Positions 6,087-19,091 of a stretch of DNA of 64,000 nt are shown piece by piece. The notes beneath the pieces were generated by a model. That model saw only the letters and a program-made list of their open reading frames with translations, ran no database searches and was not told the origin of the DNA. How positions within the stretch are numbered: the first letter of the stretch is position 1; each line of letters opens with the position of its first letter. The position numbers and the translations under genes were made by a program. The DNA is from Longimicrobiales bacterium (GTDB lineage Bacteria; Gemmatimonadota; Gemmatimonadetes; Longimicrobiales; Gaopeijiaceae): positions 3,328,001 to 3,392,000 of the forward strand of contig OZ250165.1 of the NCBI GenBank assembly GCA_965238005.1. Reading direction: 5' to 3'.

Positions 6087-6557
6087 CTACCAGCGATAGT
6101 GGGCGAACGCCTTGTTCGCCTCCGCCATCCGGTGCGTGTCGTCCTTTTTCTTGATAGTCGCGCCCTCTCCCCGGCTCGCAGCCAGGAACTCGTACGCGAG
6201 TCGCTCACCCATCGTCTTCTCCCCGCGACTGCGGGCGAAGCTGATGAGCCAGCGGCTCGCAAGTGCGGCCCGACGCTCGGGCCGGACCTCGATGGGAACC
6301 TGGTACGTGGCACCACCGACGCGCCGGCTCTTCACCTCCAGAGCGGGCTTCGCGTTGGTGAGCGCCTGCGTGAAGATGTTCAGGCCTGGCTGGCCGGAAC
6401 GCTCCTCGCAGATCTCCAGAGCTCCGTAGAATATCTTCTCTGCCAGGGACTTCTTCCCGCCGACCATGAGGTTGTTGATGAACTTCGTCACCTCGGCCGA
6501 ATCATACTTCGGATCTGGGATGAGCTCCCGGCGGACTGCCCTGCTGCGACGACTCAT
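6087..6557 (-). CDS. rpsG: 30S ribosomal protein S7
   Basis: [28 protein letters not shown]. Confidence 0.99.
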
Positions 6558-6567
6558 ACCCTATCCG

Positions 6568-6939
6568 CTACTTGGGTCTCTTGGCGCCGTACTTCGACCG
6601 ACCCTGGCGCCGATCACCGACACCGGAGGCATCCAGGGTCCCCCGGACGACGTGGTACCGCACTCCGGGCAAGTCCTTTACCCGTCCACCTCGAATGAGC
6701 ACGATCGAGTGCTCCTGGAGGTTGTGTCCTTCCCCACCGATATATGACGTCACCTCGTACCCGTTGGTCAGCCGCACCCTTGCCACCTTTCGAAGAGCCG
6801 AATTGGGCTTCTTGGGGGTGGTGGTATACACCCGGGTGCAGACCCCTCGCTTCTGAGGGTTCTTCTGCAACGCAGGGGACTTGTTCTTCTTCTGATGCTC
6901 GCGCCGTCCCTTGCGAACGAGTTGGTTGATCGTAGGCAT
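6568..6939 (-). CDS. rpsL: 30S ribosomal protein S12
   Basis: [40 protein letters not shown]. Confidence 0.99.
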
Positions 6940-7061
6940 GTCAGCCCAGGTTCATTTCGTCAAAAAAACGCGCTTGCTAACGCGCTTTCAAAGCGCGGGT
7001 CCTAGCGCGGTTTCGTGTAGGAGCCGCCGACGCTTCGGGGCGTCCGTTGCAAAGACTAGAA

Positions 7062-7090
7062 AAGTTAAAAGAGGCTCGGGGGGGTGTCAA
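7062..7090 (-). promoter_or_regulatory. sigma70-type promoter of the str (rpsL) operon
   Basis: Minus strand reads TTGACA-N17-TAACTT, about 120 bp upstream of rpsL. Confidence 0.7.
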
Positions 7091-7135
7091 CGGGGTGTTC
7101 CGCCCCGAAAACCGGCTTCGGCCGGGGCATTTTTT

Positions 7136-7152
7136 GGGGGGGGGGGGGGGGG
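7136..7152. repeat. G17 homopolymer tract
   Basis: 17 consecutive G after ttttt, between the str promoter and the inserted cluster. Confidence 0.9.
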
Positions 7153-7310
7153 TGAGGTGCCCCGCCATCGCTCGAAGCGATCCCATGAGCCTCCGGCGCA
7201 GTGTCAGGCCCCGGAGATGTCCTTCCGCCGGTGAGGTCCGGCCCAGGAGGACTCCATTGTCTGAATGGTTATCAGGGGAGTGGGGATCGCGCATCAAGCA
7301 TTCGGCCTTC

Positions 7311-8483
7311 CTACTCCCTATTCTCTACTCCCTTTCTTCCGCCGCCTATAGCTACCGGAGTTCCCCACCCCCCCACTGGACGCAAGGATCGCTGTCGGAC
7401 CAGCGTCGGCACCTGTGTGATGAAGTGCGCCGTTCGCAAGACACACTCCCACAGTTGAAACGGCAATCTGGGCAGTTCATTGAACGGCCCTCCGACGCCT
7501 ACCGTAGCCTGTATCGGATTGGGCCAACGGAGACGAATTGCTTTTAGCAGATGGGCGGGGTGCCGGAAGGAGTACGCCATCGACGGAGTATCCATATAAT
7601 GCTCCTCGATCGACCACTGGCGGAGCACTGAGGGAAGGAGCCATCGGGGCAGGTGTCTGGCCCTCTCCGCCGTCGGAATGCCGTCCAGGCGGGCCCCGAG
7701 AAGCTGGTGGGCCAGACACACGGTGGATGCCACCCAATCCGCGCGCCGCCGGTCTCCCCGCAGTAGATACTCCCAATCAAAATCCTCGGGCAGAGATTCC
7801 AGCACGACGGCGATGTCGCACAGCCACAGAGGGCGGAAGGCCCCATGGCCCAACATGTGTATGCACATGTAGCGGAGATGATCTTCGGGTCCCAATATCC
7901 GCACGTCGACGTCGCCCAGCAGTACCTGCTGGGAACGCTCGTAGACATCATCCAGCGAAGGGCGGTGGAGCTGGGGCAGACCCTTGTGCAAATCGACTAC
8001 GCCCGTCTCGGCCGCCGGAGTGGCAAGTGCAGCCGCCGCGACCGAATGCTGTTCCGGCCGAACACACAGGTCGATGTCCCCATAAGGTCGCAGCCCACGT
8101 TCGGGGTAAAGTCGAGCGATTGCCCAGCCCTTGACCAGCAGAGGGTCCACACCGGCTGACTGAAGGAGCGTAATGGCCTGAACGACTTGGCGCTCGTGGC
8201 GGGCAGCCTGGAGAGTGTAAAGGCGGTACGCCTGCCGAAGTTCGTGAGCGGCGGCGGAGATGCGGAACTCGGACGACCGCACCCGCCACCACCCCAAACT
8301 CGCTGCTCCGGTCCCGAGAAGGAGCGGCGTGACCTCGGCCAGCGCGCTAGGAGAGAGAGACAAGGGTGGTGGGTTATTGCGCCACGAGCCAGCGAGCACC
8401 GATGCTACCAGCTTGCCGCGTGGCCTCAGCTTCTGGTCAGGGTGTAGACGCGGAATGCCGCGATCCCACTGCACGTATTCCAC
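7311..8483 (-). CDS. Nucleotidyltransferase family protein (NTP_transf_5-like), module B
   Basis: LLVKGWAIARLYPERGLRPYGDIDLCV (K-G...R...D-I-D) and VDLH motifs; paralog of 10466..11632. Confidence 0.85.
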   Translation of the reverse strand: MEYVQWDRGIPRLHPDQKLRPRGKLVASVLAGSWRNNPPPLSLSPSALAEVTPLLLGTGAASLGWWRVRSSEFRISAAAHELRQAYRLYTLQAARHERQVVQAITLLQSAGVDPLLVKGWAIARLYPERGLRPYGDIDLCVRPEQHSVAAAALATPAAETGVVDLHKGLPQLHRPSLDDVYERSQQVLLGDVDVRILGPEDHLRYMCIHMLGHGAFRPLWLCDIAVVLESLPEDFDWEYLLRGDRRRADWVASTVCLAHQLLGARLDGIPTAERARHLPRWLLPSVLRQWSIEEHYMDTPSMAYSFRHPAHLLKAIRLRWPNPIQATVGVGGPFNELPRLPFQLWECVLRTAHFITQVPTLVRQRSLRPVGGWGTPVAIGGGRKGVENRE

Positions 8484-8492
8484 CGCGTAGAT

Positions 8493-9029
8493 TCATAGAC
8501 AGTCGTCGTCAACACACTCAGTAGCATCTGCTACACAGCATACACCAGGATCACCGCATATTGGCGAGTTGCCGCAAAAAGGAGGAAAACGGGTTTCGCA
8601 TTGTCCCGCACTAATACACCCAGATGCTTGTGCCGCCGCCACCGGCGCGACGATCGATGCGATCACCGGTAGGAGGATCGAGATCCCTGCAACCGGTCGC
8701 AGGGTTCGTAGCACTTCCCGCCGCGAGTATTGGGCCCTATCTGCCGGCAGTGTCAGCGGCTCACTCGGCAAGCGTGCCCTGCCCAAGCGGTCCAGCGCCA
8801 TCCACACCACCGCTTCGTCGGCCGGAATTTCCAGTTCCTTTTTCAGCAGCGCGGCTACATCGGCCACGCTCGTTCGTCCATCGCAGTGCTGCCAGACCAG
8901 GGCGGCCGTGCGATTCAGGCAACGGGCCTTGTCACGCTTCAGGTCGTATACCAGGGTTTCGTCCTGTAGCTCTTCGACGGCCGGCTCGCCATGCCTCGCA
9001 CGGGGCATCAGCGCGCTTGTCGTTTCCAT
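8493..9029 (-). CDS. PqqD/RRE domain fused to twin-arginine-like signal and 8-Cys core (putative precursor), module B
   Basis: ETLVYDL...CLNRTAALVWQHCDGRTSVAD (PqqD LN-TA--IW---DG pattern); SRREVLR + hydrophobic stretch + AAAQ; 44 aa tail with 8 Cys. Confidence 0.8.
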   Translation of the reverse strand: METTSALMPRARHGEPAVEELQDETLVYDLKRDKARCLNRTAALVWQHCDGRTSVADVAALLKKELEIPADEAVVWMALDRLGRARLPSEPLTLPADRAQYSRREVLRTLRPVAGISILLPVIASIVAPVAAAQASGCISAGQCETRFPPFCGNSPICGDPGVCCVADATECVDDDCL

Positions 9030-9118
9030 CGGTATCTCATTCCGAATCGATGGCGCGTGCTGACACTACCACGATTCCCGCGATGCGCACAAGCCACAAC
9101 TCGTCCCGAGCTACCCGT

Positions 9119-9925
9119 TCACGAGCCTCGGCCCGCCTGTTCCGTCAACCGGCCTAGGAGGACTTCGGCGACTTCGGCGGCCTCACCGCGCGCGCCCTTC
9201 ATCACCGTCGCCTCGGCCACGGTCGAGCTCAGCGTCGCGAAAACCCGCTCCGGATCACGTCTGGCGGGGACGGTGTGGTTCAAGAGCTCCAGCACCGCCC
9301 GCCCAGGCGAAAGCGGGCGCGGTCGCCAGCGTACACCGGGCCGGTAGCTGGTCTCAACCACCAAACCTACCGGGAGCGGCCTGACACCGGTTTTCCCGCC
9401 CAAAGCTTCCGGGCGGATCTTCTTCGGGCGCCCACCTCCGTTCTGCCGCATCGACAAAGCCTTGGGATACGGATGCACCCGACCATGCTTGTCAAGAACG
9501 GCGTATTCATCTGAGTAGTACGTCGCCCCCGCTTCGACCAAGGCCTTGATCAGAGTGGACTTGCCGGTCATCGTGCGCCCCGGGACGACGATGGCCCTGC
9601 CACGCCAGCCCACGACGCCGGCGTGGACAAAAACCCTGCGGCGGGCATGATCCGCGATGTGTATCTGCATGTGCCCTTCGAGGGCATCCAGTGCCTCGTC
9701 CGTGTCCTTCGTTCGTGCCAACCCTCGCGCGCCCACATACAGAACGTTGAAACGGCGACGGTTGGAGCCGACCTTGGTGCCGCTGGCTATCAGCGAATAC
9801 AAAAAATCCACGCGGGGGCCGCGAGCCGGCTTCACATCCGGCGGAAGCACTCCTTCAATCCGATCCAGGATCTCCGGGCTGCTCACCCGGATCCCAATAC
9901 GTACTCCGTGGGAGACGAACGCCAT
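9119..9925 (-). CDS. HPr-kinase-related P-loop Ser/Thr kinase, module B
   Basis: FVHAGVV...PGRTMTGKSTL (Walker A) and YYSDE; near-identical to 13551..14393. Confidence 0.8.
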   Translation of the reverse strand: MAFVSHGVRIGIRVSSPEILDRIEGVLPPDVKPARGPRVDFLYSLIASGTKVGSNRRRFNVLYVGARGLARTKDTDEALDALEGHMQIHIADHARRRVFVHAGVVGWRGRAIVVPGRTMTGKSTLIKALVEAGATYYSDEYAVLDKHGRVHPYPKALSMRQNGGGRPKKIRPEALGGKTGVRPLPVGLVVETSYRPGVRWRPRPLSPGRAVLELLNHTVPARRDPERVFATLSSTVAEATVMKGARGEAAEVAEVLLGRLTEQAGRGS

Positions 9926-9961
9926 CCCTGCCGCCCACCCAAGGCGGTCGATTTTCTTTTG

Positions 9962-10036
9962 TCAGGTAGATCGCCACACCAAGACCATATCGTCAGCGTC
10001 GCGCAAGTACGGTCGAGATCCATTGTGCTGTTTCAT
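9962..10036 (-). CDS. Putative 24-aa small ORF upstream of kinase B (MKQHNGSRPYLRDADDMVLVWRST)
   Basis: ATG..TGA, 75 nt, collinear with an equal-length ORF at 14394..14468; no clear RBS. Confidence 0.3.
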   Translation of the reverse strand: MKQHNGSRPYLRDADDMVLVWRST

Positions 10037-10465
10037 CGGCAATTCGTCGCTCAAGGGGTTGTCTGAGAAGGAGTCGTGCGGTCAGGGTGCATGCACAAAG
10101 ATAGGCCCACGAGCCAAAACCAGGGAGATTTAGTTACGCAACGTCACCTTCAAAGGCGACGCTCCGAGGCAAAGCCGCGTTTACGCGGCGAGGCCGTGGA
10201 GCGAGCGTCGATCCACCGCGCCCCCAATCACCTTCCCGCCAACGCCCTCCCGCCACAACGATTGAGTTGCAGACCGTCACAGCACGCATGATCCGAGGCG
10301 CGGCCGCGGACCTCCCCGCACCCAAGTATCCTCCCGCCAATGCCCAACAACCGGCATGCCAAAAAGCCGCGCGGGACGGAGGATTTCGGGGGGTCGAACG
10401 ATGAGCAGGCGAGCGCGGATTGCGCAACGAGCATTCGGCCTTCCTGCTCGTTGACGCCCTACTCC

Positions 10466-11632
10466 CTATTTTTTTCGGTTTCTGGCAGCCGGAGGTCCCC
10501 ACCCCCCCATAGGGCGGAGGGATCTCTCGCGGACCCGCGTCGGCACGTGCCTGATGAAGTACGCCGTCCGCAAGACGCATTCCAACAGTTGAAACGGCAA
10601 CCTGGGCAGTTCATTAAACGGCCCTCCCACGCGTACCGTGGCCTGTATCGGATTGGGCCAACGGAGGCGAAGCGCTTTGAACAACCGGGTGCGGTGCTTG
10701 AGGAACGACCCCATCAACGCATCATCCATGTAGTGCTCCTCCATCGACCACTGGGTGAGCACTGCCGGAACAAGCCACCGAGGCAAACGCCTGGTCCTCT
10801 CGCCCGTCGGAATGCCGTCCAAACGGGCCCCCAGGAGCTGGTGGGCCAGACACAGTGTGGACGCTACCCAATCTGCGGGCCGCGGATCTCCCCGAAACAA
10901 GTACTCCCAATCGAAATCCTCGGGCAGAGTTTCTAGTACAACGGCGACGTCGCACAGCCACAGAGCGCGGTGCAGGCCGTGCTGGAGCATGTGTACGCAC
11001 ATGTAACGCAGATGATCTTCAGGCCCCAAGATCCGCACGTCGACGTCACCGAGCGGTACAAGCTGGGATCGCCGGTAGACATCGTCCAACGAAGGGCGGT
11101 GGAGCTGCGGCAGGCCGGCATGCAGATCGACCGCGACCTTTCCGGTGGTCGGAGCAGCGAGTGCAGCCGCCGCTTGCGCATACTGTTCCGGCCGAACGCA
11201 TATGTCGATATCTCCAGAGGGCCGCAGCCCACGTTCGGAGTACAGACGAGCGACTGCCCAGCCCTTGACCAACAGCGGCTCCACCCCCGCTGACCGAAGT
11301 AACGTGATGGCCCGGACAATCAACCGCTCCTGGCGACCAGCCGCGAGAGTGTAATGGCGGTATGCCTGCCGAAGTTCATGTGCGACGGTCGAGGCGCGTA
11401 GCTCCGACGACCGCACCCGCCACCACGCGAGGCCCCCAGCGCCCCAGCCGAGCAGTAGGGGTGCGACCTCGGTGAGGGCGGCGGACGTCAGAGACGAAGG
11501 CCAAGGTGGTGAGGGCGTGCGCCAAGCGCCGACGAGGGCCGCGGCCACCAACTTACCGCGTCGCCTCGGATCGCTGGCGGCGCCCGGATCCGGAAACGAC
11601 GACGTCACCGCCCTATCTCCGCTTCCTTCCAC
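10466..11632 (-). CDS. Nucleotidyltransferase family protein (NTP_transf_5-like), module A
   Basis: LLVKGWAVARLYSERGLRPSGDIDICV, VDLH; true start may be GTG at 11608. Confidence 0.85.
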   Translation of the reverse strand: MEGSGDRAVTSSFPDPGAASDPRRRGKLVAAALVGAWRTPSPPWPSSLTSAALTEVAPLLLGWGAGGLAWWRVRSSELRASTVAHELRQAYRHYTLAAGRQERLIVRAITLLRSAGVEPLLVKGWAVARLYSERGLRPSGDIDICVRPEQYAQAAAALAAPTTGKVAVDLHAGLPQLHRPSLDDVYRRSQLVPLGDVDVRILGPEDHLRYMCVHMLQHGLHRALWLCDVAVVLETLPEDFDWEYLFRGDPRPADWVASTLCLAHQLLGARLDGIPTGERTRRLPRWLVPAVLTQWSMEEHYMDDALMGSFLKHRTRLFKALRLRWPNPIQATVRVGGPFNELPRLPFQLLECVLRTAYFIRHVPTRVRERSLRPMGGWGPPAARNRKK

Positions 11633-12764
11633 GCTTCAGGATCACCTGGTCCATCCGGGCTCCCAGACTGTTGAACAGCACGGTTCGATCCGAGGAGCTC
11701 ATGGTGGCTGGAACCGCCTGCTCGAGGACCGTGAGCGTCTGCGGGCTGCTCTTGAATGCACGCCAGAAGCGATGGGCGGCGAAAACCAGCTCGGGAACGC
11801 CGAACGGTGGCGATTTCAGGTTGGCTTTTCTAGAGATCTCGAGGGGTTCGTCGCCCCGAGCCAATAGGCGGAGGACGGGGGAAAGATCGGTCAGAATCCG
11901 ATGGGCTCCTTGTAACGAGGGCGGCTCAGGCGACAGCGCGCATGTGTGTCTCAGAATACGCTCCGCCAACGCCAGCGCAGCGAGCATTGCTTCCGAGCTC
12001 AAGCTGAGCAGGCCAAGCCGGAAGGGTGATGCCAGCGCCAGCAACAAATCGTCTGTCGCGTCGCGGGCGACGGGGCGGGACGGTAGATCCAGGCCGAGAA
12101 GCCGAGTCCCACGATCTACGCGGGAACCCAGCGCGGCACGATCGGCCGACGCATCGTTCAGCACGTCGCCGAAGCGGGCATGGTCCAGGGCCTGGGAACA
12201 CACATCCCGGAAGGTCGATTCCCTCGCCACAACGGCTCGCGGACCGAGATCGGGGTGTAAACGGGTAGGTGTCAGAAACGACTTCACGTATCCCGGATCC
12301 AGCATTCGGCTGTCACGGATGGCGGCCTCGAGGTCGGCGTGGGTACCCTCAACGGCCCCGGGCGATGCCGGGACCTGCAAACGCAGGGGACACAGGAAGT
12401 GCGGGCTGACGGCAACCGCGGCCCCGATCCGGGTGAACACGTTGAACGGAAAAGTCACACAAACCCCCGGCTTGGTGCCCTTTCCGTGCTCCTTTTCAAT
12501 ACGGCACTGGAGGTCGGCGTCGAGGAAAAAGCACCCCCCGGAGGGCGTGGCGATATTGACCTGATCGGCTTGACGGCTAGTGGACACGCTGCCGAGGGCT
12601 GGATAGATCTGTAGCAGCTTACGCATCTCACGCTCGAGGCTGCCGCCGAAGCCATCCCCGCGGCAGCACAGTGCCGTGCACTCCGCACAGACGTAGTGAT
12701 AAACGCCGTCCGGAAACGCGAAGAAGAACGAGCCGTCCTGACTATCCGTGGTTGGTGCGGGCAC
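11613..12764 (-). CDS. YkgJ-family (CxxCxxCC-type) cysteine-cluster protein
   Basis: YVCAECTALCC ... GGCFFLDADLQCRIEKEHG...KPGVCVTFPF pattern; RBS GGAGGAG before GTG. Confidence 0.75.
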   Translation of the reverse strand: MPAPTTDSQDGSFFFAFPDGVYHYVCAECTALCCRGDGFGGSLEREMRKLLQIYPALGSVSTSRQADQVNIATPSGGCFFLDADLQCRIEKEHGKGTKPGVCVTFPFNVFTRIGAAVAVSPHFLCPLRLQVPASPGAVEGTHADLEAAIRDSRMLDPGYVKSFLTPTRLHPDLGPRAVVARESTFRDVCSQALDHARFGDVLNDASADRAALGSRVDRGTRLLGLDLPSRPVARDATDDLLLALASPFRLGLLSLSSEAMLAALALAERILRHTCALSPEPPSLQGAHRILTDLSPVLRLLARGDEPLEISRKANLKSPPFGVPELVFAAHRFWRAFKSSPQTLTVLEQAVPATMSSSDRTVLFNSLGARMDQVILKRGRKRR

Positions 12765-12904
12765 GCCCTGCTCCTCCGCTCATTTCATGTGGCGCCGATC
12801 GTTGATGGTGACCGCCAGGGTGGGGGGAAGCGCGCCGGAGTGGGCCTAACGTACAGTCTTACCGCGGTTGGCTGGACATGCCCATTCGCGAAATGTCGTG
12901 ATCT

Positions 12905-13453
12905 TCAGCAACCACATTTCTCCTGGGCCTGGGAGTTACCCATGCACTTTCCATTACAACACATTCTCTTGTCGCAAGTGGTTCCGGTGTTGTTGATGCA
13001 TGGGGTGCAAACCGGCATCCCTCCACAAGCATTTTGGGGCAGGCACGAGGTTTGTGCCGCCGCCAACGGCGCGACGATCGAATCGATCACCGGCAGGAGC
13101 AGCGAGATCCCGGCTGCCCGTCGCAGAGTTCGTAGCATCTCCCGACGCGAGTATCGGGCCCGATCCGCCGGCAGTGCCACCGGCTCACTCAGCAAGTGTG
13201 CCCGGTCCAAGCGGTCCAGCGCCATCCACACCACTGCCTCGTCGGCCGGGAGCTCCAGTTCCTTTTTCAGCAGCGCGGCCGTATCGGCCACGCTCGTTCG
13301 CCCATTGCAGCACCGCCACACGAGGGCGGCCGTGTGATTCAGGCAAGAGGCCTTGTGGCGCTCCAGGTCGTAGATCAGGATTTCGTCCTGCAAGTCCTCG
13401 ACAACCAGCTCGTCTTGCCTCGCCCGGGGCATCAGCGCTCTTGTGGTTTCCAT
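12905..13453 (-). CDS. PqqD/RRE domain fused to twin-arginine-like signal and 10-Cys core (putative precursor), module A
   Basis: Start ATG 13453 (METTRALMPRAR) after GGAGTGAGG; EILIYDL..CLNHTAALVWRCCNG; SRREMLR..LLLPVIDSIVAPLAAAQ; 48 aa tail with 10 Cys. Confidence 0.8.
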   Translation of the reverse strand: METTRALMPRARQDELVVEDLQDEILIYDLERHKASCLNHTAALVWRCCNGRTSVADTAALLKKELELPADEAVVWMALDRLDRAHLLSEPVALPADRARYSRREMLRTLRRAAGISLLLPVIDSIVAPLAAAQTSCLPQNACGGMPVCTPCINNTGTTCDKRMCCNGKCMGNSQAQEKCGC

Positions 13454-13550
13454 AGGTACCTCACTCCAAAATCGCTGGCGCGTGCTTACACTACCATTAT
13501 TCACGATTCATATGTGGCGCACAAGCCAAAACTCGTCCCGAGCTACCGCT

Positions 13551-14393
13551 TCACGAACCTCGGCCCGCCTGTTTCGTTAACCGGCCCAAGAGGACTTCGG
13601 CGATTCCCCCGGCCTCACCACGCGCTCCCTTTAGCACCATCGCCTCGGCCGTGGCCGCACGCAGCGTCGCGAAGACCCGCTCCGGATCGCGTCTGGCGGG
13701 GACGGTGTGGGCCAAGAGTTCCATCACCGCCCGCCCAGGCGAAAGCCGGCGCGGTCGCCACCGCACACCCTCCCGGTAGCTTGTCGCGACGACCAATCCT
13801 ACCGGGAGCGGTCTGACACCGGTTGTCCCGCCCAAAGCTTCCGGGAGGATCTTCTTCGGGCGTCCACCCCCGTTCTGCCGCATCGACAAAGGCTTCGGAT
13901 AGGGATGCACCCGACCACGCTCATCGAGCACGGCGTATTCATCCGAGTAGTACGTCGCCCCCGCCTCGACCAATGCCTTGATCAGGGTCGTCTTGCCGCT
14001 CATGCTACGCCCCGGGATGACGATCGCCCTGCCACGCCAGCCCACGACGCCGGCATGGACAAACACCCTGCGGCGGGCATGTTCGGCGACGTATAGATGC
14101 AAGTGGTTTTCGAGGTCTTCCAGTACCTGGTCCGTGTCCTTCGTTCGTACCAGCCTTACCGCGCCCGCATACAGAATATTGAAACGGCGAACGTTGGAGC
14201 CGACCTTGGTTCCGCTGGCTATCAGCGAATACAAACCACCGACGCGGGGCCCGCGAGCCGGCTTGGCATGCGGTGGAAGCACTCCTTCAATCCGATCCAT
14301 GATCTCCGGACTACTCACCCGGATCCCGATGCGTAAGCCGTAGGAGACGAACGCGATCCCCGCCGCCCACCCGAGGCGGTCGATTTTCTCCAT
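13551..14393 (-). CDS. HPr-kinase-related P-loop Ser/Thr kinase, module A
   Basis: FVHAGVV...PGRSMSGKTTL (Walker A), YYSDE. Confidence 0.8.
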   Translation of the reverse strand: MEKIDRLGWAAGIAFVSYGLRIGIRVSSPEIMDRIEGVLPPHAKPARGPRVGGLYSLIASGTKVGSNVRRFNILYAGAVRLVRTKDTDQVLEDLENHLHLYVAEHARRRVFVHAGVVGWRGRAIVIPGRSMSGKTTLIKALVEAGATYYSDEYAVLDERGRVHPYPKPLSMRQNGGGRPKKILPEALGGTTGVRPLPVGLVVATSYREGVRWRPRRLSPGRAVMELLAHTVPARRDPERVFATLRAATAEAMVLKGARGEAGGIAEVLLGRLTKQAGRGS

Positions 14394-14468
14394 TCAGGTG
14401 GACCCCGGCACCAACACCATCTCGTCGACGTCGCACATCTGCGGTGGAGATCCTCTGTGCTGTTTCAT
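14394..14468 (-). CDS. Putative 24-aa small ORF abutting kinase A (MKQHRGSPPQMCDVDEMVLVPGST)
   Basis: TGA directly followed by the kinase ATG (TGAATG); collinear with 9962..10036. Confidence 0.3.
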   Translation of the reverse strand: MKQHRGSPPQMCDVDEMVLVPGST

Positions 14469-14644
14469 GGGGCAATTACACCACCGCGATTGACGAGCCG
14501 ATCGCAGCGCCATTAGAAGGCCGGCGCGACACTGTAAGTCAATGCATCATAACAAGTTCAGTCAGAAGGAACCAGTCGCCCCAGCACCCTGAAAGCCCGT
14601 TCGTACAGCACGTCCTAACCACACTGGACGCCCGATCACACCGC

Positions 14645-14683
14645 AAAAATATGAGGGGGAGTGCCCATCGGGCACTCCCCCTC
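14645..14683 (-). terminator. Intrinsic terminator after rpoC
   Basis: 14-bp stem gagggggagtgccc-atc-gggcactccccctc followed on the minus strand by atattttt. Confidence 0.75.
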
Positions 14684-14702
14684 GCTCACTCAACCGGCTT
14701 GC

Positions 14703-14793
14703 CGAAGCGGGTCGTCGGCTCCCCGGAGCGACGATCTGCGGCGCAGCCGTAGAGCGTAGCGTCGGCGCGCAGAGGAGCCGACGACCCGCTTCG
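14703..14793. repeat. 20-bp perfect inverted repeat with 51-nt loop just after the rpoC stop
   Basis: cgaagcgggtcgtcggctcc (14703-14722) / ggagccgacgacccgcttcg (14774-14793). Confidence 0.85.
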
Positions 14794-14795
14794 AC

Positions 14796-17700
14796 CTAGT
14801 CGGCCGTGACCTCTTCGAGCCCGATCAGCTCGCCCGGATCCACCAACGGAAGAATCTCCTCCTCGTAGAACGATTGCTCGACCATGAACTCCACGTCCTG
14901 ATACCGATGGACACCGGTTCCGGCTGGGATGAGGTGACCGATGATGATGTTCTCCTTGAGCCCCTTCAGGTCGTCCCTGGCGCCCCGGACTGCGGCGTCC
15001 GTAAGCACGCGGGTCGTCTCCTGGAAAGAGGCGGCCGAGATGAAGGACTCGGTCGTGAGGCTCGCCTTGGTGATCCCCAGCAGGAGCGGCTCGGAGCGAG
15101 CCGGCTTCTTGCCGTCTTTGATCGATCTGCGGTTCACCTCGCGGAATTCGACCCGGTCGACGTTCTCCCCTTCCAGCAGCGCCGTCTCACCGGGATCGGT
15201 GATGCGGACCTTCTGGAGCATCTGCCGGACGATCACACCGATGTGCTTGTCGTTGATTTGCACGCCCTGCAGTCGGTACACCTCCTGGATCCCGTTGAGC
15301 AGGTACTCCTGCACGGCCCGGGGGCCACGGATCTTCAGGATGTCGTGCGGGTTGATGGGACCCTCGGACAGACGGTCACCCGCCCGCACCCGGTCACCCT
15401 CGTGCACCCGCATGTGCTTGCCGACGGGCACCGGGTAAGCCCTCTCGTCCTTCTCCCCGGTGTCCGGCGTCACGATCACTTCGCGCTTGCCTCGTTTGAT
15501 GTCGCCGAAACGTACCTCGCCGTCGATCTCCGTGATGACCGCCGGGTCCTTCGGGCGACGCGCCTCGAAGAGCTCAGCAACGCGCGGCAGACCCCCCGTG
15601 ATATCTCGGGTCTTATACACCTCGCGGCTGATCTTGGCGATGGTGTCGCCGGGGTTGATCTTCTCACCGTCCCGGACCGTGAGCTGGGCGCCCATCGGGA
15701 TGATGAACTCCCGGAGCTTCTCGGCCTTCTTCGTGCCCTTCCGAATCTGGATAGTCGGGTGCAGCTTCTTGTCGCGATCCTCGATGATCGTCATCTGGCG
15801 ACGACCCGTGGACTCGTCCAGCTCCTCCCTCATGGTCTGCTCGTCGACGATGTCGACGAACTTCACGACCCCGCCGGAGTCGGCCACGATGGGCTCGGAA
15901 TACGGGTCCCAGCTGAAGAGCAGGTCGCCGGACTCGATCACCTGCCCCTCTTCAGCCGCGAGCGTCGCGCCGTACGGAACGCTCAGGCGACTACGGACCT
16001 GGCCCTCCGCCGTCTTGAGCAGGATCTGCCCCTCGCGTGAGGTCACGATCAGCTCGTCGTTGGGCGTAAGAACCGTGGTGACGCGCTCCAGAGCCGCCAC
16101 TCCGTCGATCTTCGAGCGACGCTGGGTCTGAGCCGCGATCCGGGCCGCTGTTCCTCCGATATGGAACGTCCGCAGCGTGAGCTGCGTCCCGGGCTCGCCG
16201 ATCGACTGGGCCGCCAGAATCCCGACGGCCTCACCGATGTCGACCAGCTGCATGGTGGCCAGGTTCCGGCCATAGCACATGTGGCAGAGGCCCCTCTTGG
16301 ACTCACACGTCAGCACGGACCGGATCTTCACGACCTGAATCCCTGCAGCTTCGATGGCGTCCGCGGTCTCCTCTTCGATGAGATGGCCGGCCTGGACCAG
16401 CAACTCTCCGTCGATGGGATCGTAGACGTCCTCGAGGGCCACGTTGCCCACGATTCGGTCCATGAGAGGCTCGATGATGTCCTCACCCTCCTTGAGGGCA
16501 GTCATCTCGAGGCCGAGGATGGTCCCGCAGTCTTCCCCGGTGATGGTCACGTCCTGGGCGACGTCGACGAGGCGGCGCGTGAGGTACCCTGCGTCCGCCG
16601 TCTTCAACGCCGTGTCGGCGAGACCCTTCCGCGCTCCGTGGGTAGAGATGAAGTACTCCACCACCGACAGCCCCTCGCGGAAGTTGGACTTGATGGGGCT
16701 CTCGATGATCTCGCCGATGCCACCCGTGAGCTTCTTTTGGGGCTTGGCCATGAGGCCACGCATCCCGGCGAGCTGCCGCATCTGGTCGCGGTTACCTCGC
16801 GCCCCGGAGGTCATCATCATGTAGACGGGGTTGAAGCCCTCCTGAGAACGCTCCAGCCGCTTGACCATGGCGTCGGCTACGTCGTTGTTGGCGTGGGTCC
16901 AGGTGTCGATGACCTTGTTGTACCGCTCACCGTTGGAGATGTAGCCGCTGGAGTACGCCTTCTGAAAGCGCTTGACCTGCTCGCCGGCTTCGTCCAGGAT
17001 CTGCGGCTTCTCATCCGGCACATCGAGGTCGGCGATACCCACGCTGATCCCACCCATGGTGGCGTACCGGAAGCCGAAGTCCTTCAGATAGTCCAAGAAC
17101 TCGGTCGTACGGGTCAGCCCCACGGTGGTGAAACAGTCGAAGACGAGGTCTCCCAGCTCCTTCTTGCCGAACGTCTGGTTGAAGAAGCCCAGCTCCGCCG
17201 GGATGATGGAGTTGAACAGCACGCGTCCCGCCGTGCACCTGAGCCACTTGCCGTCGTGGTCTCCGTCCTCCTCGGGATGCTTCGGCACCCAGTACCAGCA
17301 CGGGCTGTTGAACTGGAGCCAACCGCCCTCCAGCCCCATCTCCACCTCTCCGAACGTGGAGAAGTGGGGAACGTCGGCGTAGATCTCGTCAAGGCCCTCT
17401 TCGGCAGCGGCCCGAGCGTTCTTGGGCGCCTTGCTGTTGTACGCCACCTCCTCCAGGTCCGAGATCTCCAGGGCCGGCTTGGTGAGGTAGTACCCACCGA
17501 TGACCATGTCCTGGGACGGCGCCGTGACCGGTCGGCCGTGGGATGGCAGCAGGATGTTGTTGCTCGATAGCATGAGCACCCGTGCCTCGAGCTGCGCCTC
17601 GAACGACAGAGGTACGTGAACCGCCATCTGGTCCCCGTCGAAGTCGGCGTTGAACGCCGCGCACACGAGCGGGTGGATCCGGATGGCCTTCCCCTCCACG

Positions 17701-19091
17701 AGCACGGGCTCGAACGCCTGGATGCCCAGACGGTGGAGCGTCGGGGCTCGGTTCAGCAGCACCGGGTGGTCTTTGATGATGTCCTCGAGGACTTCATAGA
17801 CCTTCGGATCGTCACGCTCGACGATCTTCTTGGCTCTCTTGACCGTCTCGGCCTCGCCCCGCTTCTCGAGCTCGTGGATGATGAACGGCTTGAACAGCTC
17901 CACGGCCATGGCCTTGGGCAGGCCGCACTGGTGCAGTTTGAGCTCGGGACCGACCACGATGACCGAGCGACCAGAGTAGTCCACCCGCTTCCCGAGCAGG
18001 TTCTGGCGGAAGCGTCCCTGCTTGCCCTTTAGCATGTCGGACAGTGACTTGAGGGGACGCTTGCCCCGACCGCGAATGGCCTTCGAACGCCGCCCGTTGT
18101 CGAAGAGCGCGTCGACGGCCTCCTGAAGCATGCGCTTCTCATTCCGGAGGATGACCTCCGGGGCGCGCATGTCGATGAGCTTCTTGAGCCGGTTATTCCG
18201 GTTGATGACCCGACGGTACAGGTCGTTCAGGTCGGAGGTGGCGAACCGTCCCCCGTCCAGCGGAACCAGAGGCCGAAGGTCGGGCGGAATCACCGGAATC
18301 ACATCCATGACCATCCACTCGGGCCGGTTCCGTTCGCCCACGCTGCCGCCCGAGTTGCGCAAGGCGTCGACCACCTTGAGCCGCTTCAGCTTCTTCTTCT
18401 TACGGTGCTGTGACGTCTCCGTGGCGATCTCGATCCGCAGCCAATGTGCCAGGCGATCGAGGCCTTTGCCGTCGGAGTTGCGGTCGTTGATCCGGCGCAC
18501 CGGGCTGTCGAGCATCTTGAGAAGCGTGCGAACCGCCTCGGCACCGATCTCGGCCTTGAACCTCTCGTCGCCCTTGTCTCGCGACTTCACCCGCAGATCG
18601 TAGTACTCGTCCTCGTCCAGGAGCTCGAGGAACTCGACATCCTGCTTGCCGGGGTGCGTCACCACGTACGAGGCGTAGTAGATCACCTTCTCCAGATCCC
18701 GCAGCGTCATCCCGACCAGGTACCCCAGCTGGCTAGGTAGCGTCTTGAAGAACCAGATGTGACAGATGGGCACTGCCAACTCGATGTGGCCCATGCGCTC
18801 GCGGCGAACCTTGGAGAGCGTGACCTCGACCCCGCAGCGATCACAGACGTGCCCCCGGAACCGGATCCGCTTGAACTTCCCGCAGTGACACTCCCAGTCC
18901 TTCACCGGACCGAAGATGCGCTCACAGAACAGTCCGTCCCGCTCCGGCTTGAAGGACCGGTAGTTGATGGTCTCGGGCTTAGTCACCTCACCGAACGACC
19001 AGGAGCGGATCTCCTCGGGAGCGGCGATTCTGATCTGGATGAAGTCGAAGTCCGAGGAGCGCTGCTCTCTCGACCTGGGAAAATCGATCAT
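14796..19091 (-). CDS. rpoC: RNA polymerase beta' subunit
   Basis: [12 protein letters not shown] catalytic motif, [12 protein letters not shown], Zn-finger cysteines. Confidence 0.99.

Follow-up and report, generated by a model that had tools for sequence, protein, structure and literature searches.

The question raised by this locus is what is made by a gene that joins, within a single polypeptide, a small domain of the PqqD type, an internal twin-arginine (RR) motif followed by a hydrophobic stretch, and a short cysteine-rich tail. The gene occurs as two paralogs, here called fusion A and fusion B, in the genome of a Longimicrobiales bacterium of the phylum Gemmatimonadota (GenBank assembly GCA_965238005.1, contig OZ250165.1), within the 64,000-nucleotide stretch between positions 3,328,001 and 3,392,000 of the forward strand; this whole stretch is referred to below as the window. 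Each paralog belongs to a cassette, and the two paralogous cassettes together form seven minus-strand open reading frames (ORFs) bounded by rpoC (14796-19091) and rpsL (6568-6939). We propose, giving the proposal about an even chance, that the fusion gene is a self-contained, self-presenting precursor of an exported disulfide-rich mini-protein. Its RiPP recognition element (RRE; RiPP, a peptide made on the ribosome and modified after translation) would bind the protein's own leader, tailoring would take place in the cytoplasm, and the product would exit by the twin-arginine translocation (Tat) route and be cut at an AxA site. The family defined by this gene is very large and apparently undescribed, and its products are probably mini-proteins that are tailored and secreted. 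A search of literature full text found no account of a fusion between an RRE, an RR signal and a Cys-rich tail; the supplements of the paper on LPP RiPPs discussed below lay outside that search and could list related clusters.

Both fusions display the same order of parts, namely a PqqD/RRE domain, the motif SRRE(V/M)LR, the hydrophobic stretch, an AAA|Q site and a tail with 10 (A) or 8 (B) Cys residues; residues 102-133 read SRREMLRTLRRAAGISLLLPVIDSIVAPLAAA in fusion A and SRREVLRTLRPVAGISILLPVIASIVAPVAAA in fusion B. The ORF of fusion A spans 12905-13504, but because homologs begin at METT its start was set at 13453 (182 aa). The paralogs are 64% identical overall; identity is 78% across residues 1-136 and drops to 17% in the tail. 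Exactly two copies of the gene are present in the genome, and a composite pattern of RR motif ([ST]RRx-hydrophobic-hydrophobic-[RKQ]), hydrophobic window and AxA occurs six times among the 23,269 stop-to-stop frames (100 aa or more) of this genome, fusions A and B being two of the six. The composition that a preliminary description, made from the letters of this DNA, had noticed in both paralogs is thus borne out by the ORFs, their translations, the Pfam PqqD matches and the genome-wide rarity of the pattern. The tail strings and Cys counts given there likewise agree with the translations, the tails measuring 49 and 45 aa in our delineation.

The same architecture extends far beyond the window. 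A word-indexed search returned 405 homologs, and in each of the 120 among the matches listed, [S/T]RR is accompanied by the hydrophobic stretch and by sites of the AAAQ type. When a profile of the close homologs was compared with 1.84 billion representative proteins, 7,038 clusters matched at E≤1e-3, of which 4,460 reached E≤1e-10 and 602 reached E≤1e-30; the fusion layout was examined in the best 150 of these representatives, and weaker profile matches may be relatives that possess only the PqqD domain. A separate small precursor gene, or an internal start for the tail, was considered and rejected, since the frame is continuous and the layout is kept in 148 of the 150 representatives.

In the N-terminal domain, Pfam PF05402 (PqqD) matches both fusions above its gathering score of 23.4 bits (36.0 bits for B and 31.7 bits for A). 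Modeling with AlphaFold2 (AF2) on an alignment of 91 diverse sequences yielded a mean predicted local distance difference test score (pLDDT) of 85.5 and a predicted template modeling score (pTM) of 0.71, compared with 59.7 and 0.32 for an alignment of 46 close homologs. In the 91-sequence model, strands at residues 16-20, 25-29 and 34-38 are followed by helices at 40-48, 55-66 and 72-84, with pLDDT of 94-97. The nearest solved structures, identified with Foldseek and independently with VIA, are the leader-bound RREs of lasso peptide B1 proteins 5v1u, 5v1v and 6jx3 (TM per target 0.75-0.78, Z 7.0-7.2; VIA Z 7.2 to 6jx3_B and 7.0 to 5v1u_A), and RREs of other RiPPs and PqqD itself rank below them; the matches of both structure searches were taken up by the RRE part of the model. 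This likeness to lasso B1 proteins comes from the structure searches only, the sequence search of solved structures with the diverse alignment having returned weak PqqD matches (E 0.03-0.04). Residues ~10-90 thus model as a winged-helix RRE of the lasso B1 type, with the strand-strand-strand-helix-helix-helix succession and B1 neighbors that agree with the PqqD winged helix proposed in the preliminary description.

The segment that follows this domain has the features of a twin-arginine signal. RR succeeded by a hydrophobic window, defined as a best 15-residue Kyte-Doolittle score above 1.5, is found in 148 of the 150 best representatives, the exceptions being one protein with RK and one fragment; the RR pair had been predicted to be conserved among homologs, and so it is. 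The consensus around it (S in 77% or T in 14%, R, R, x, L/V/M, L/V/M/I, R in 68% or K in 13%, K/R, L, G) reads as the Tat consensus in which F has been swapped for other hydrophobic residues. Within the chosen 91-sequence subset, the only invariant columns are D29, G51, L87, R103 and R104. The hydrophobic segment, an h-region rich in Gly, Ala and Leu, extends from about residue 110 to 129 (17-20 residues) and leads into a well-kept c-region, with P129 in 88, A131 in 68, A132 in 69 and A134 in 76 of the 91 sequences. S/T136 is kept in 87 of them; P121 and S/T125 are conserved in the same range (68-88 of 91). A strict AxA site lies a median of 32 residues downstream of RR in 121 of 148 representatives. 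The organism's own genome encodes TatC (195.9 bits) as well as two LepB-type signal peptidases, and tatC is present in all five distant carrier genomes inspected.

At residues 103-104, behind a folded domain, the RR pair is not N-terminal as in typical Tat signals. The preliminary description had regarded this internal location as a departure from the norm; the location stands, but it is not unprecedented. In a 2026 review (FEMS Microbiol Rev, PMC13673990), internal non-cleaved Tat signals behind a folded cytoplasmic domain constitute class V, typified by FecR, and the internal signals of polytopic actinobacterial Rieske proteins constitute class IV, so that the position is unusual but not new. 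The same text states that small unstructured cargo is tolerated by Tat and lists Tat lipoproteins among the substrate classes. As described there, class V and IV substrates share with the fusion family a folded cytoplasmic domain, an internal RR signal and a subsequent membrane-crossing part (cf. Keller 2012, Tooke 2017). They differ in that their signals are non-cleaved anchors of regulators or redox proteins, whereas the conserved Pro...AxA of the fusion family suggests cleavage and its cargo is a variable peptide of 45 aa.

The tails contrast sharply with this conserved front. Representative tails have a median length of 45 aa and contain 14% Cys and 13% Gly. Of the 139 representatives that have the full motif, 123 carry an even number of Cys, 6 an odd number and 10 none; the 120 close homologs divide into 118 with an even and 2 with an odd count, with 10 Cys the commonest class (66), followed by 8 (49), 6 (3) and 9 (2). 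Pairwise identity in 46 close homologs is 85% over residues 1-136 versus 30% in the tail, or 18% when Cys is disregarded; unrelated Cys frameworks follow fronts that are 85% identical. In 121 representative tails, a C-C-CC-C-C framework is found in 16 and knottin-like spacing (C-x-C-x-CC-x-C-x-C) in 25. The last six Cys of tail B, C-x5-C-x5-CC-x6-C-x4-C, fit the knottin spacing. The even counts point to an oxidizing compartment, and a conserved front with a hypervariable even-Cys tail fits a released, oxidized disulfide-rich core. A released knottin- or defensin-like or metal-binding peptide had been suggested in the preliminary description; the disulfide-rich alternative agrees with these patterns, whereas metal binding appears less likely because many tails have knottin-type C-C-CC-C-C spacing and not CxxC pairs.

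Precursors built on a similar principle are familiar. Long-leader RiPP precursors, such as the nitrile-hydratase-like and Nif11-like ones, carry a protein-sized conserved leader before a short hypervariable core, and venom and knottin precursors of eukaryotes combine a conserved pre-pro region, with an N-terminal Sec signal, with a hypervariable Cys-rich mature part. The conserved front, the short hypervariable core and the C-C-CC-C-C frameworks are common to these precursors and the fusion family; unlike in the fusion family, the leaders of the long-leader RiPPs are not known to be RRE folds or to carry an internal Tat motif. Two distant members of the family (locus L023, 8209-8718, and locus L024, 2654-3319, both on the minus strand of their own contigs) retain SRRE, the hydrophobic stretch and AMA, and their tails are Cys-free and basic or Lys-Pro-rich; at L023 a GNAT-like ORF lies between the kinase and fusion genes.

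Both cassettes of the window combine the fusion gene with genes for an HprK-like kinase and a PF14907 nucleotidyltransferase (NTase), and this linkage recurs elsewhere. Among 201 genomes of the phylum, 14 have a match to the fusion protein, although only eight places in six of them cover the signal region, and the order kinase-fusion-NTase is common to six phylum genomes. A scan with one genome per species uncovered 79 loci, in Gemmatimonadota, Acidobacteriota (Pyrinomonadaceae, Blastocatellia, Chloracidobacterium, Vicinamibacteria), Methylomirabilota/Rokubacteria and Chloroflexota, and further in delta-proteobacteria, Actinomycetes, Devosia and a Clostridia metagenome-assembled genome (MAG). 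The adjoining genes include an HprK-like kinase in 43, a PF14907 NTase in 49 and a CxxCxxCC gene in 6 of the 79 loci. In 24 loci, mostly acidobacterial arrays, neither kinase nor NTase is nearby; the two enzymes are accessory. No transporter or peptidase family recurs in five or more of the 79 neighborhoods.

The hydrophobic segment also resembles a RiPP leader. The pattern P-x7-[PSQ] is found downstream of RR in 139 of the 150 representatives. Counted from its proline (P121 in the window's proteins), position +2 is V or I in 131 of the 139, position -3 is hydrophobic, the AxA site falls at +12/13 and position +15, residue 136, is Ser in 89 and Thr in 36 (125 of 139; Ser or Thr in 120 of 120 close homologs). 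Judging from the spacing of the proline, the Ser at +15 and the AxA register, the putative signal thus matches lasso and LPP leaders in the geometry of its h- and c-regions. The closest published system, which the preliminary description does not mention, is that of the LPP RiPPs, found in Bacillota (LppA/K/B/S/D/N; Popov et al., Nat Commun 2026, PMC13381572), whose HprK-like kinase LppK polyphosphorylates core Ser3 of LppA. Their leader motif YxxPxVLxHQxIxFETxxS is cut after T-1, which, when counted from the proline, places the cut at P+12/13 and the Ser at P+15. It is the LPP RRE that offers the cut site to the peptidase; the precursors are conserved at the front and variable at the end, and the family is called restricted to Bacillota (PMC13381572).

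Set against this account, the fusion family has in common with LPP an RRE as well as an HprK-like kinase, an uncharacterised nucleoside triphosphate (NTP) transferase, a highly variable C-terminus and no macrolactam cyclase, together with the leader proline, V at P+2, Ser at P+15 and a cut in the same register, predicted in the fusion family. Common to both is also a leader cut by an enzyme of the signal-peptidase type (SpI-like in LPP), predicted to act at AxA in the fusion family, whose RRE would present the cleavage site as that of LPP does. There are differences too. The RRE is a discrete protein in LPP but is fused to the precursor N-terminus here; the Y, HQ and FET elements of the printed LPP motif are not common to both, and an invariant RR n-region and an AxA c-region are added. 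The cores of the fusion family are Cys-rich and its hosts belong to Gemmatimonadota, Acidobacteriota and other phyla, as opposed to Bacillota. Of the LPP core gene set of SpI-like peptidase, discrete RRE, kinase, NTP transferase and MsbA-like exporter, the fusion cassettes contain only the kinase and the NTP transferase.

Related enzyme sets are known from two further systems. One is the HPr-rel-A system (TIGR04352), in which a related kinase is likewise paired with a PqqD-family protein and a nucleotidyltransferase; the fusion proteins gave no match at E≤0.01 to any HPr-rel-A PqqD model in NCBIfam. The window's kinases scored 53.9 and 55.6 bits against TIGR04352, far below its cut-off of 200 (NCBIfam); kinases and fusion proteins alike are relatives but do not belong to the system. 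The other comprises phosphorylated and phosphoglycosylated lasso peptides such as paeninodin and pseudomycoidin, in which members of the same kinase and NTase families stand beside a B1-type RRE; according to a review (PMC8498205), linear lasso precursors are phosphorylated on their C-terminal Ser by HprK homologs, and the NTase decorates that phosphate with hexoses. A lasso cyclase and a B2 protease were both absent from the seven rpoC-rpsL ORFs in a Pfam/NCBIfam scan, and neither recurs in the 79 neighborhoods.

Whether the RRE recognizes its own leader-like segment was addressed with models and covariation. The 91-sequence AF2 model is compact, with a strand at residues 123-126 of the leader segment and no long helix. 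Mutual information with average product correction (MI-APC) over 250 non-redundant sequences placed 17 of the 20 top RRE-leader pairs on beta3/alpha3 (residues 34-40 and 72-86), which make up ~26% of the RRE positions scored, although MI is confounded by phylogeny and by the indel-prone columns 115-116. On the RRE side the pairs involve residues 37, 40, 73, 77, 81, 85 and 86, which lie in beta3 or on one face of alpha3, and on the leader side residues 100-102, 109, 111-113, 115-117, 119, 130, 132 and 133; the top pairs within the domain resemble real contacts. From this model and the covariation we infer that the RRE would bind its own leader-like segment in cis, and likewise the partner in strand pairing. 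The preliminary description had envisaged an inverted logic in which the precursor carries the RRE, possibly to recruit kinase and NTase. The first half is retained; as to the second, the evidence points less to recruitment of these enzymes and more to cis leader binding. Overall, that interpretation is partly supported, and on the two points that could be decided computationally, the RRE fold and the conservation of RR, it came out right.

The mechanism that we favor, in which cis binding, the phosphorylation site, the Tat route and the cleavage are what we infer, would run as follows. In the cytoplasm the RRE would hold its own leader segment in the beta3/alpha3 groove and thereby offer the surroundings of Ser136 to the HprK-like kinase encoded next to it; extension of the phosphate by the PF14907 nucleotidyltransferase may follow, and cassette A may contribute another change through its YkgJ/FliB-like protein. 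The segment would next be passed to the Tat translocase, the RRE staying inside while the tail crosses the membrane, and signal peptidase I would cut after A131-A-A133 to free a peptide with an N-terminal Gln, in which disulfides would form outside the cytoplasm. The Tat route would make sense for a substrate tailored in the cytoplasm.

Several points weigh against this precursor model, the confounding of MI noted above being one of them. The AF2 models disagree over residues 114-134, which form a helix with the shallow alignment and a strand with the deep one (pLDDT 65-72). The defining aromatic residue of the leader, Y/W, is replaced by V, L or A in the fusion family. Ser at P+15 is found in 37 of 44 genes lacking both kinase and NTase, compared with 28 Ser plus 4 Thr of 39 genes that have both, so that the expected specificity for kinase-linked loci is not seen, Ser being equally conserved in the absence of a nearby kinase. 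Tails A and B end in Cys and Leu, and of the 42 kinase-linked tails, the 40 covered by the eight commonest endings have C, V, A, P, R, L, I or G as their last residue, with S not among these, whereas the characterised lasso kinases act on a C-terminal Ser; no tail class of the fusion family was found to end in Ser. The SipW-type peptidase that processes the LPP leader was not found in this genome, nor is there an MsbA-like exporter in the cassettes. Tat-signal profile models of Pfam and NCBIfam gave no match (E≤10) when the proteins were cut back to begin at residue 99, which lowers the claim only a little because such short models are weak. Asp or Glu occurs within the hydrophobic stretch of the close family, insertion of an N-in signal anchor by Sec and the signal recognition particle (SRP) would fit too, and all carriers among the 79 loci are uncultured MAGs.

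A more far-reaching version of the precursor model, which we consider unlikely, casts the RRE as a built-in proofreading chaperone of the Tat signal, holding the combined signal and leader until kinase and NTase have phospho-decorated Ser136 and only then releasing it to TatC. If this were true, the export of knottin-like, phospho-glycosylated mini-proteins would be gated by post-translational modification, one segment would be RRE-binding leader, Tat signal and signal-peptidase site at once, and a previously unrecognised coupling of RiPP-type tailoring to general secretion would emerge.

Of the alternatives to a released peptide, the one that survives best, though still improbable in our estimate, is a bitopic membrane protein that stays uncleaved, like FecR (a class V Tat substrate), with the RRE in the cytoplasm, the RR segment as a permanent anchor and the tail tethered on the outer face. 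Such a protein could serve as a sensor, a receptor or a module displayed at the surface, and the cytoplasmic domain would be the target or the intermediary of the kinase. Its appeal lies in the architecture, which matches the class V description in PMC13673990, and in a hydrophobic segment of 17-20 residues; cleavage of the fusion proteins is, after all, a prediction. For an anchor, however, the signal-peptidase features would be superfluous, and these are precisely what is kept (Pro129 in 88/91, small A131/A132/A134, strict AxA in 121/148). The switching of unrelated Cys frameworks behind 85%-identical fronts and the tandem arrays are typical of released peptides, and some tails are Cys-free Lys-rich strings.

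It is distinctly unlikely that the same exported precursor is instead inserted as an N-in signal anchor by the SRP/Sec/YidC machinery, its Arg pair being kept for contact with the RRE or enzymes or for positive-inside topology. As a rule, oxidation of small Cys-rich peptides follows their export by Sec, there is no evident cofactor or folded cargo to require Tat, and the lack of a match to hidden Markov models (HMMs) of Tat signals is as this explanation predicts. But positive-inside signals let K and R interchange, whereas 148 of 150 diverged clusters retain RR, flanked as in the Tat consensus, and the neighboring cytoplasmic tailoring enzymes would favor a post-translational route that tolerates modification.

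Very unlikely, in our view, is a cytoplasmic RiPP precursor in which the hydrophobic segment is an RRE-binding leader only and the core is cut and exported by machinery encoded elsewhere. The lasso/LPP leader spacing, the AF2 strand (not helix) in a compact protein, the MI link to the RRE groove and a segment more conserved than ordinary signal peptides all agree with it. Against it stand an invariant RR and a Pro-containing AxA c-region that are foreign to the printed lasso/LPP leader motif, even Cys counts that point to an oxidising compartment, and the lack of any recurring peptidase or transporter in the neighborhoods or of a SipW-type peptidase in the genome. Hardly credible is a lipoprotein targeted by Tat or Sec, with Cys137 as the lipidated +1 residue and a lipid-anchored tail, for although 58 of 91 diverse sequences, like most close homologs, have C137 directly behind [A/Q]-[A/T/G]-S, and Tat lipoproteins are a listed substrate class (PMC13673990), 33 of the 91 have no Cys in this column while Ser/Thr136 is present in 87, additional residues precede the first Cys in paralog B and others, and Gln at -3 in paralog A and most close homologs, or at -4 in B, misfits the lipobox.

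Table 1. Genes, protein segments and a hairpin of the two cassettes, in window coordinates
Feature	Position	Strand	Evidence
Terminator-like hairpin with a stem of 14 pairs (11 of them G-C) and a T-run, separating rpoC from cassette A	14653-14683	-	Consensus match only
HprK-related kinase A, first gene of cassette A, 280 aa	13551-14393	-	NCBIfam TIGR04352 HprK_rel_A, E 1.4e-14, 53.9 bits
Fusion protein A, 182 aa and stop codon; made up of RRE, internal RR signal or leader, and a tail with 10 Cys	12905-13453	-	
Fusion A residues 1-92, PqqD/RRE domain	13178-13453	-	Pfam PF05402, E 2e-7; AF2 pLDDT 94-97 over residues 11-60
Fusion A residues 102-133, with n-region SRREMLRTLRR, the hydrophobic stretch LLLPVIDSIVAP and the AAA site; resembles a Tat signal and also a leader	13055-13150	-	Translation, column conservation
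Fusion A residues 134-182, predicted released core QTSC...CGC, 49 aa, 10 Cys	12908-13054	-	Translation; AF2 pLDDT 78-93 over residues 141-182
CxxCxxCC protein (YkgJ/FliB-like lead), 383 aa, cassette A only	11613-12764	-	ESM Atlas neighbors
Nucleotidyltransferase A, 388 aa	10466-11632	-	Pfam PF14907 NTP_transf_5, E 1.8e-28
HprK-related kinase B, 268 aa	9119-9925	-	TIGR04352, E 4.2e-15, 55.6 bits, under the cut-off
Fusion protein B, 178 aa plus stop	8493-9029	-	Pfam PF05402, E 9e-9
Fusion B residues 102-133, SRREVLRTLRP..AGISILLPVIASIVAPVAAA signal/leader	8631-8726	-	Translation
Fusion B residues 134-178, predicted core QASGC...DDDCL, 45 aa, 8 Cys	8496-8630	-	Translation
Nucleotidyltransferase B, 390 aa; start 9 bases past fusion B stop	7311-8483	-	Pfam PF14907, E 2.9e-29

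The remaining genes of the cassettes are listed in Table 1. Kinases A and B are 82% identical, and the translation of kinase A contains the Walker-A-like GRSMSGKT, with G133 and K134 invariant across 41 homologs. The 383-aa protein of cassette A has no Pfam or NCBIfam match and contains CAECTALCC near its N-terminus. Its nearest clusters in the ESM Atlas carry PF03692 CxxCxxCC in 34-82% of members, and farther ones carry FliB_C (flagellin lysine-N-methylase-like); it is a possible extra tailoring enzyme. The strong terminator-like hairpin after rpoC suggests that the cassettes probably have a promoter of their own. A near-identical 19-base hairpin-forming sequence with a T-run is found on the plus strand at 9930-9948 and 14362-14380, at the 5' end of both kinase genes, and may be either merely paralogous sequence or a conserved structure. 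The cassettes interrupt, between rpoC and rpsL/rpsG, the otherwise very conserved rpoBC-str gene row (6087-19091), and the insertion point recurs: rpsL/rpsG adjoin the cassette in 10 and rpoC in 8 of the 79 loci (e.g. L026, L028, L031-L033, L037, L038 and L048), and in one locus (L102) the cassette lies beside rpsL but is divergent.

Acidobacterial loci contain 2-5 fusion genes in tandem. Arrays devoid of kinase and NTase (L055, L072, L075, L078, L081, L083, L084, L093 and L095) often adjoin genes for a ~433-aa protein (12 loci), a PrmA-like S-adenosylmethionine (SAM) methyltransferase, a Dam-type methylase, an amidohydrolase and a giant protein with a C25 peptidase. The 433-aa protein belongs to no Pfam or NCBIfam family, and its Atlas neighbors are 'hypothetical' clusters only. 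One Pyrinomonadaceae MAG contains at least four separate loci of the family (L087, L089, L101 and L103). A genome from another family of the same class (G142) has two copies at distant places (L003/L019 and L016/L020), and their fronts match those of the window with E-values of 9e-93 and 6e-84, nearly as close as the window's two copies are to each other. This closeness, together with the patchy distribution (14 of 201 genomes), suggests horizontal spread.

Among the components of the precursor model, LPP/lasso-type tailoring and the class V-like Tat architecture are already known. What is unusual is a substrate-borne RRE and a single segment that seems to be leader, export signal and cleavage site. 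If the model is true, the RiPP logic would be reversed, in that the substrate would carry the recognition element and bind its own leader, whereas in known pathways the RRE is carried by an enzyme or adaptor; the leader would double as a general-secretion signal, so that a dedicated peptidase and exporter would not be needed. The enzyme set of LPP and phosphorylated lasso peptides would extend far beyond Bacillota, with Ser136, three residues past the predicted cut, as the candidate phosphosite, and RiPP leader recognition, internal-signal Tat targeting and disulfide-rich mini-proteins, usually studied apart, would be linked. The pattern of conserved front and hypervariable tail suggests an antagonistic or surface-interaction role for the released peptide. 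The family sits in poorly cultured phyla of soil and sediment and may be a large untapped source of stable knottin-like bacterial peptides.

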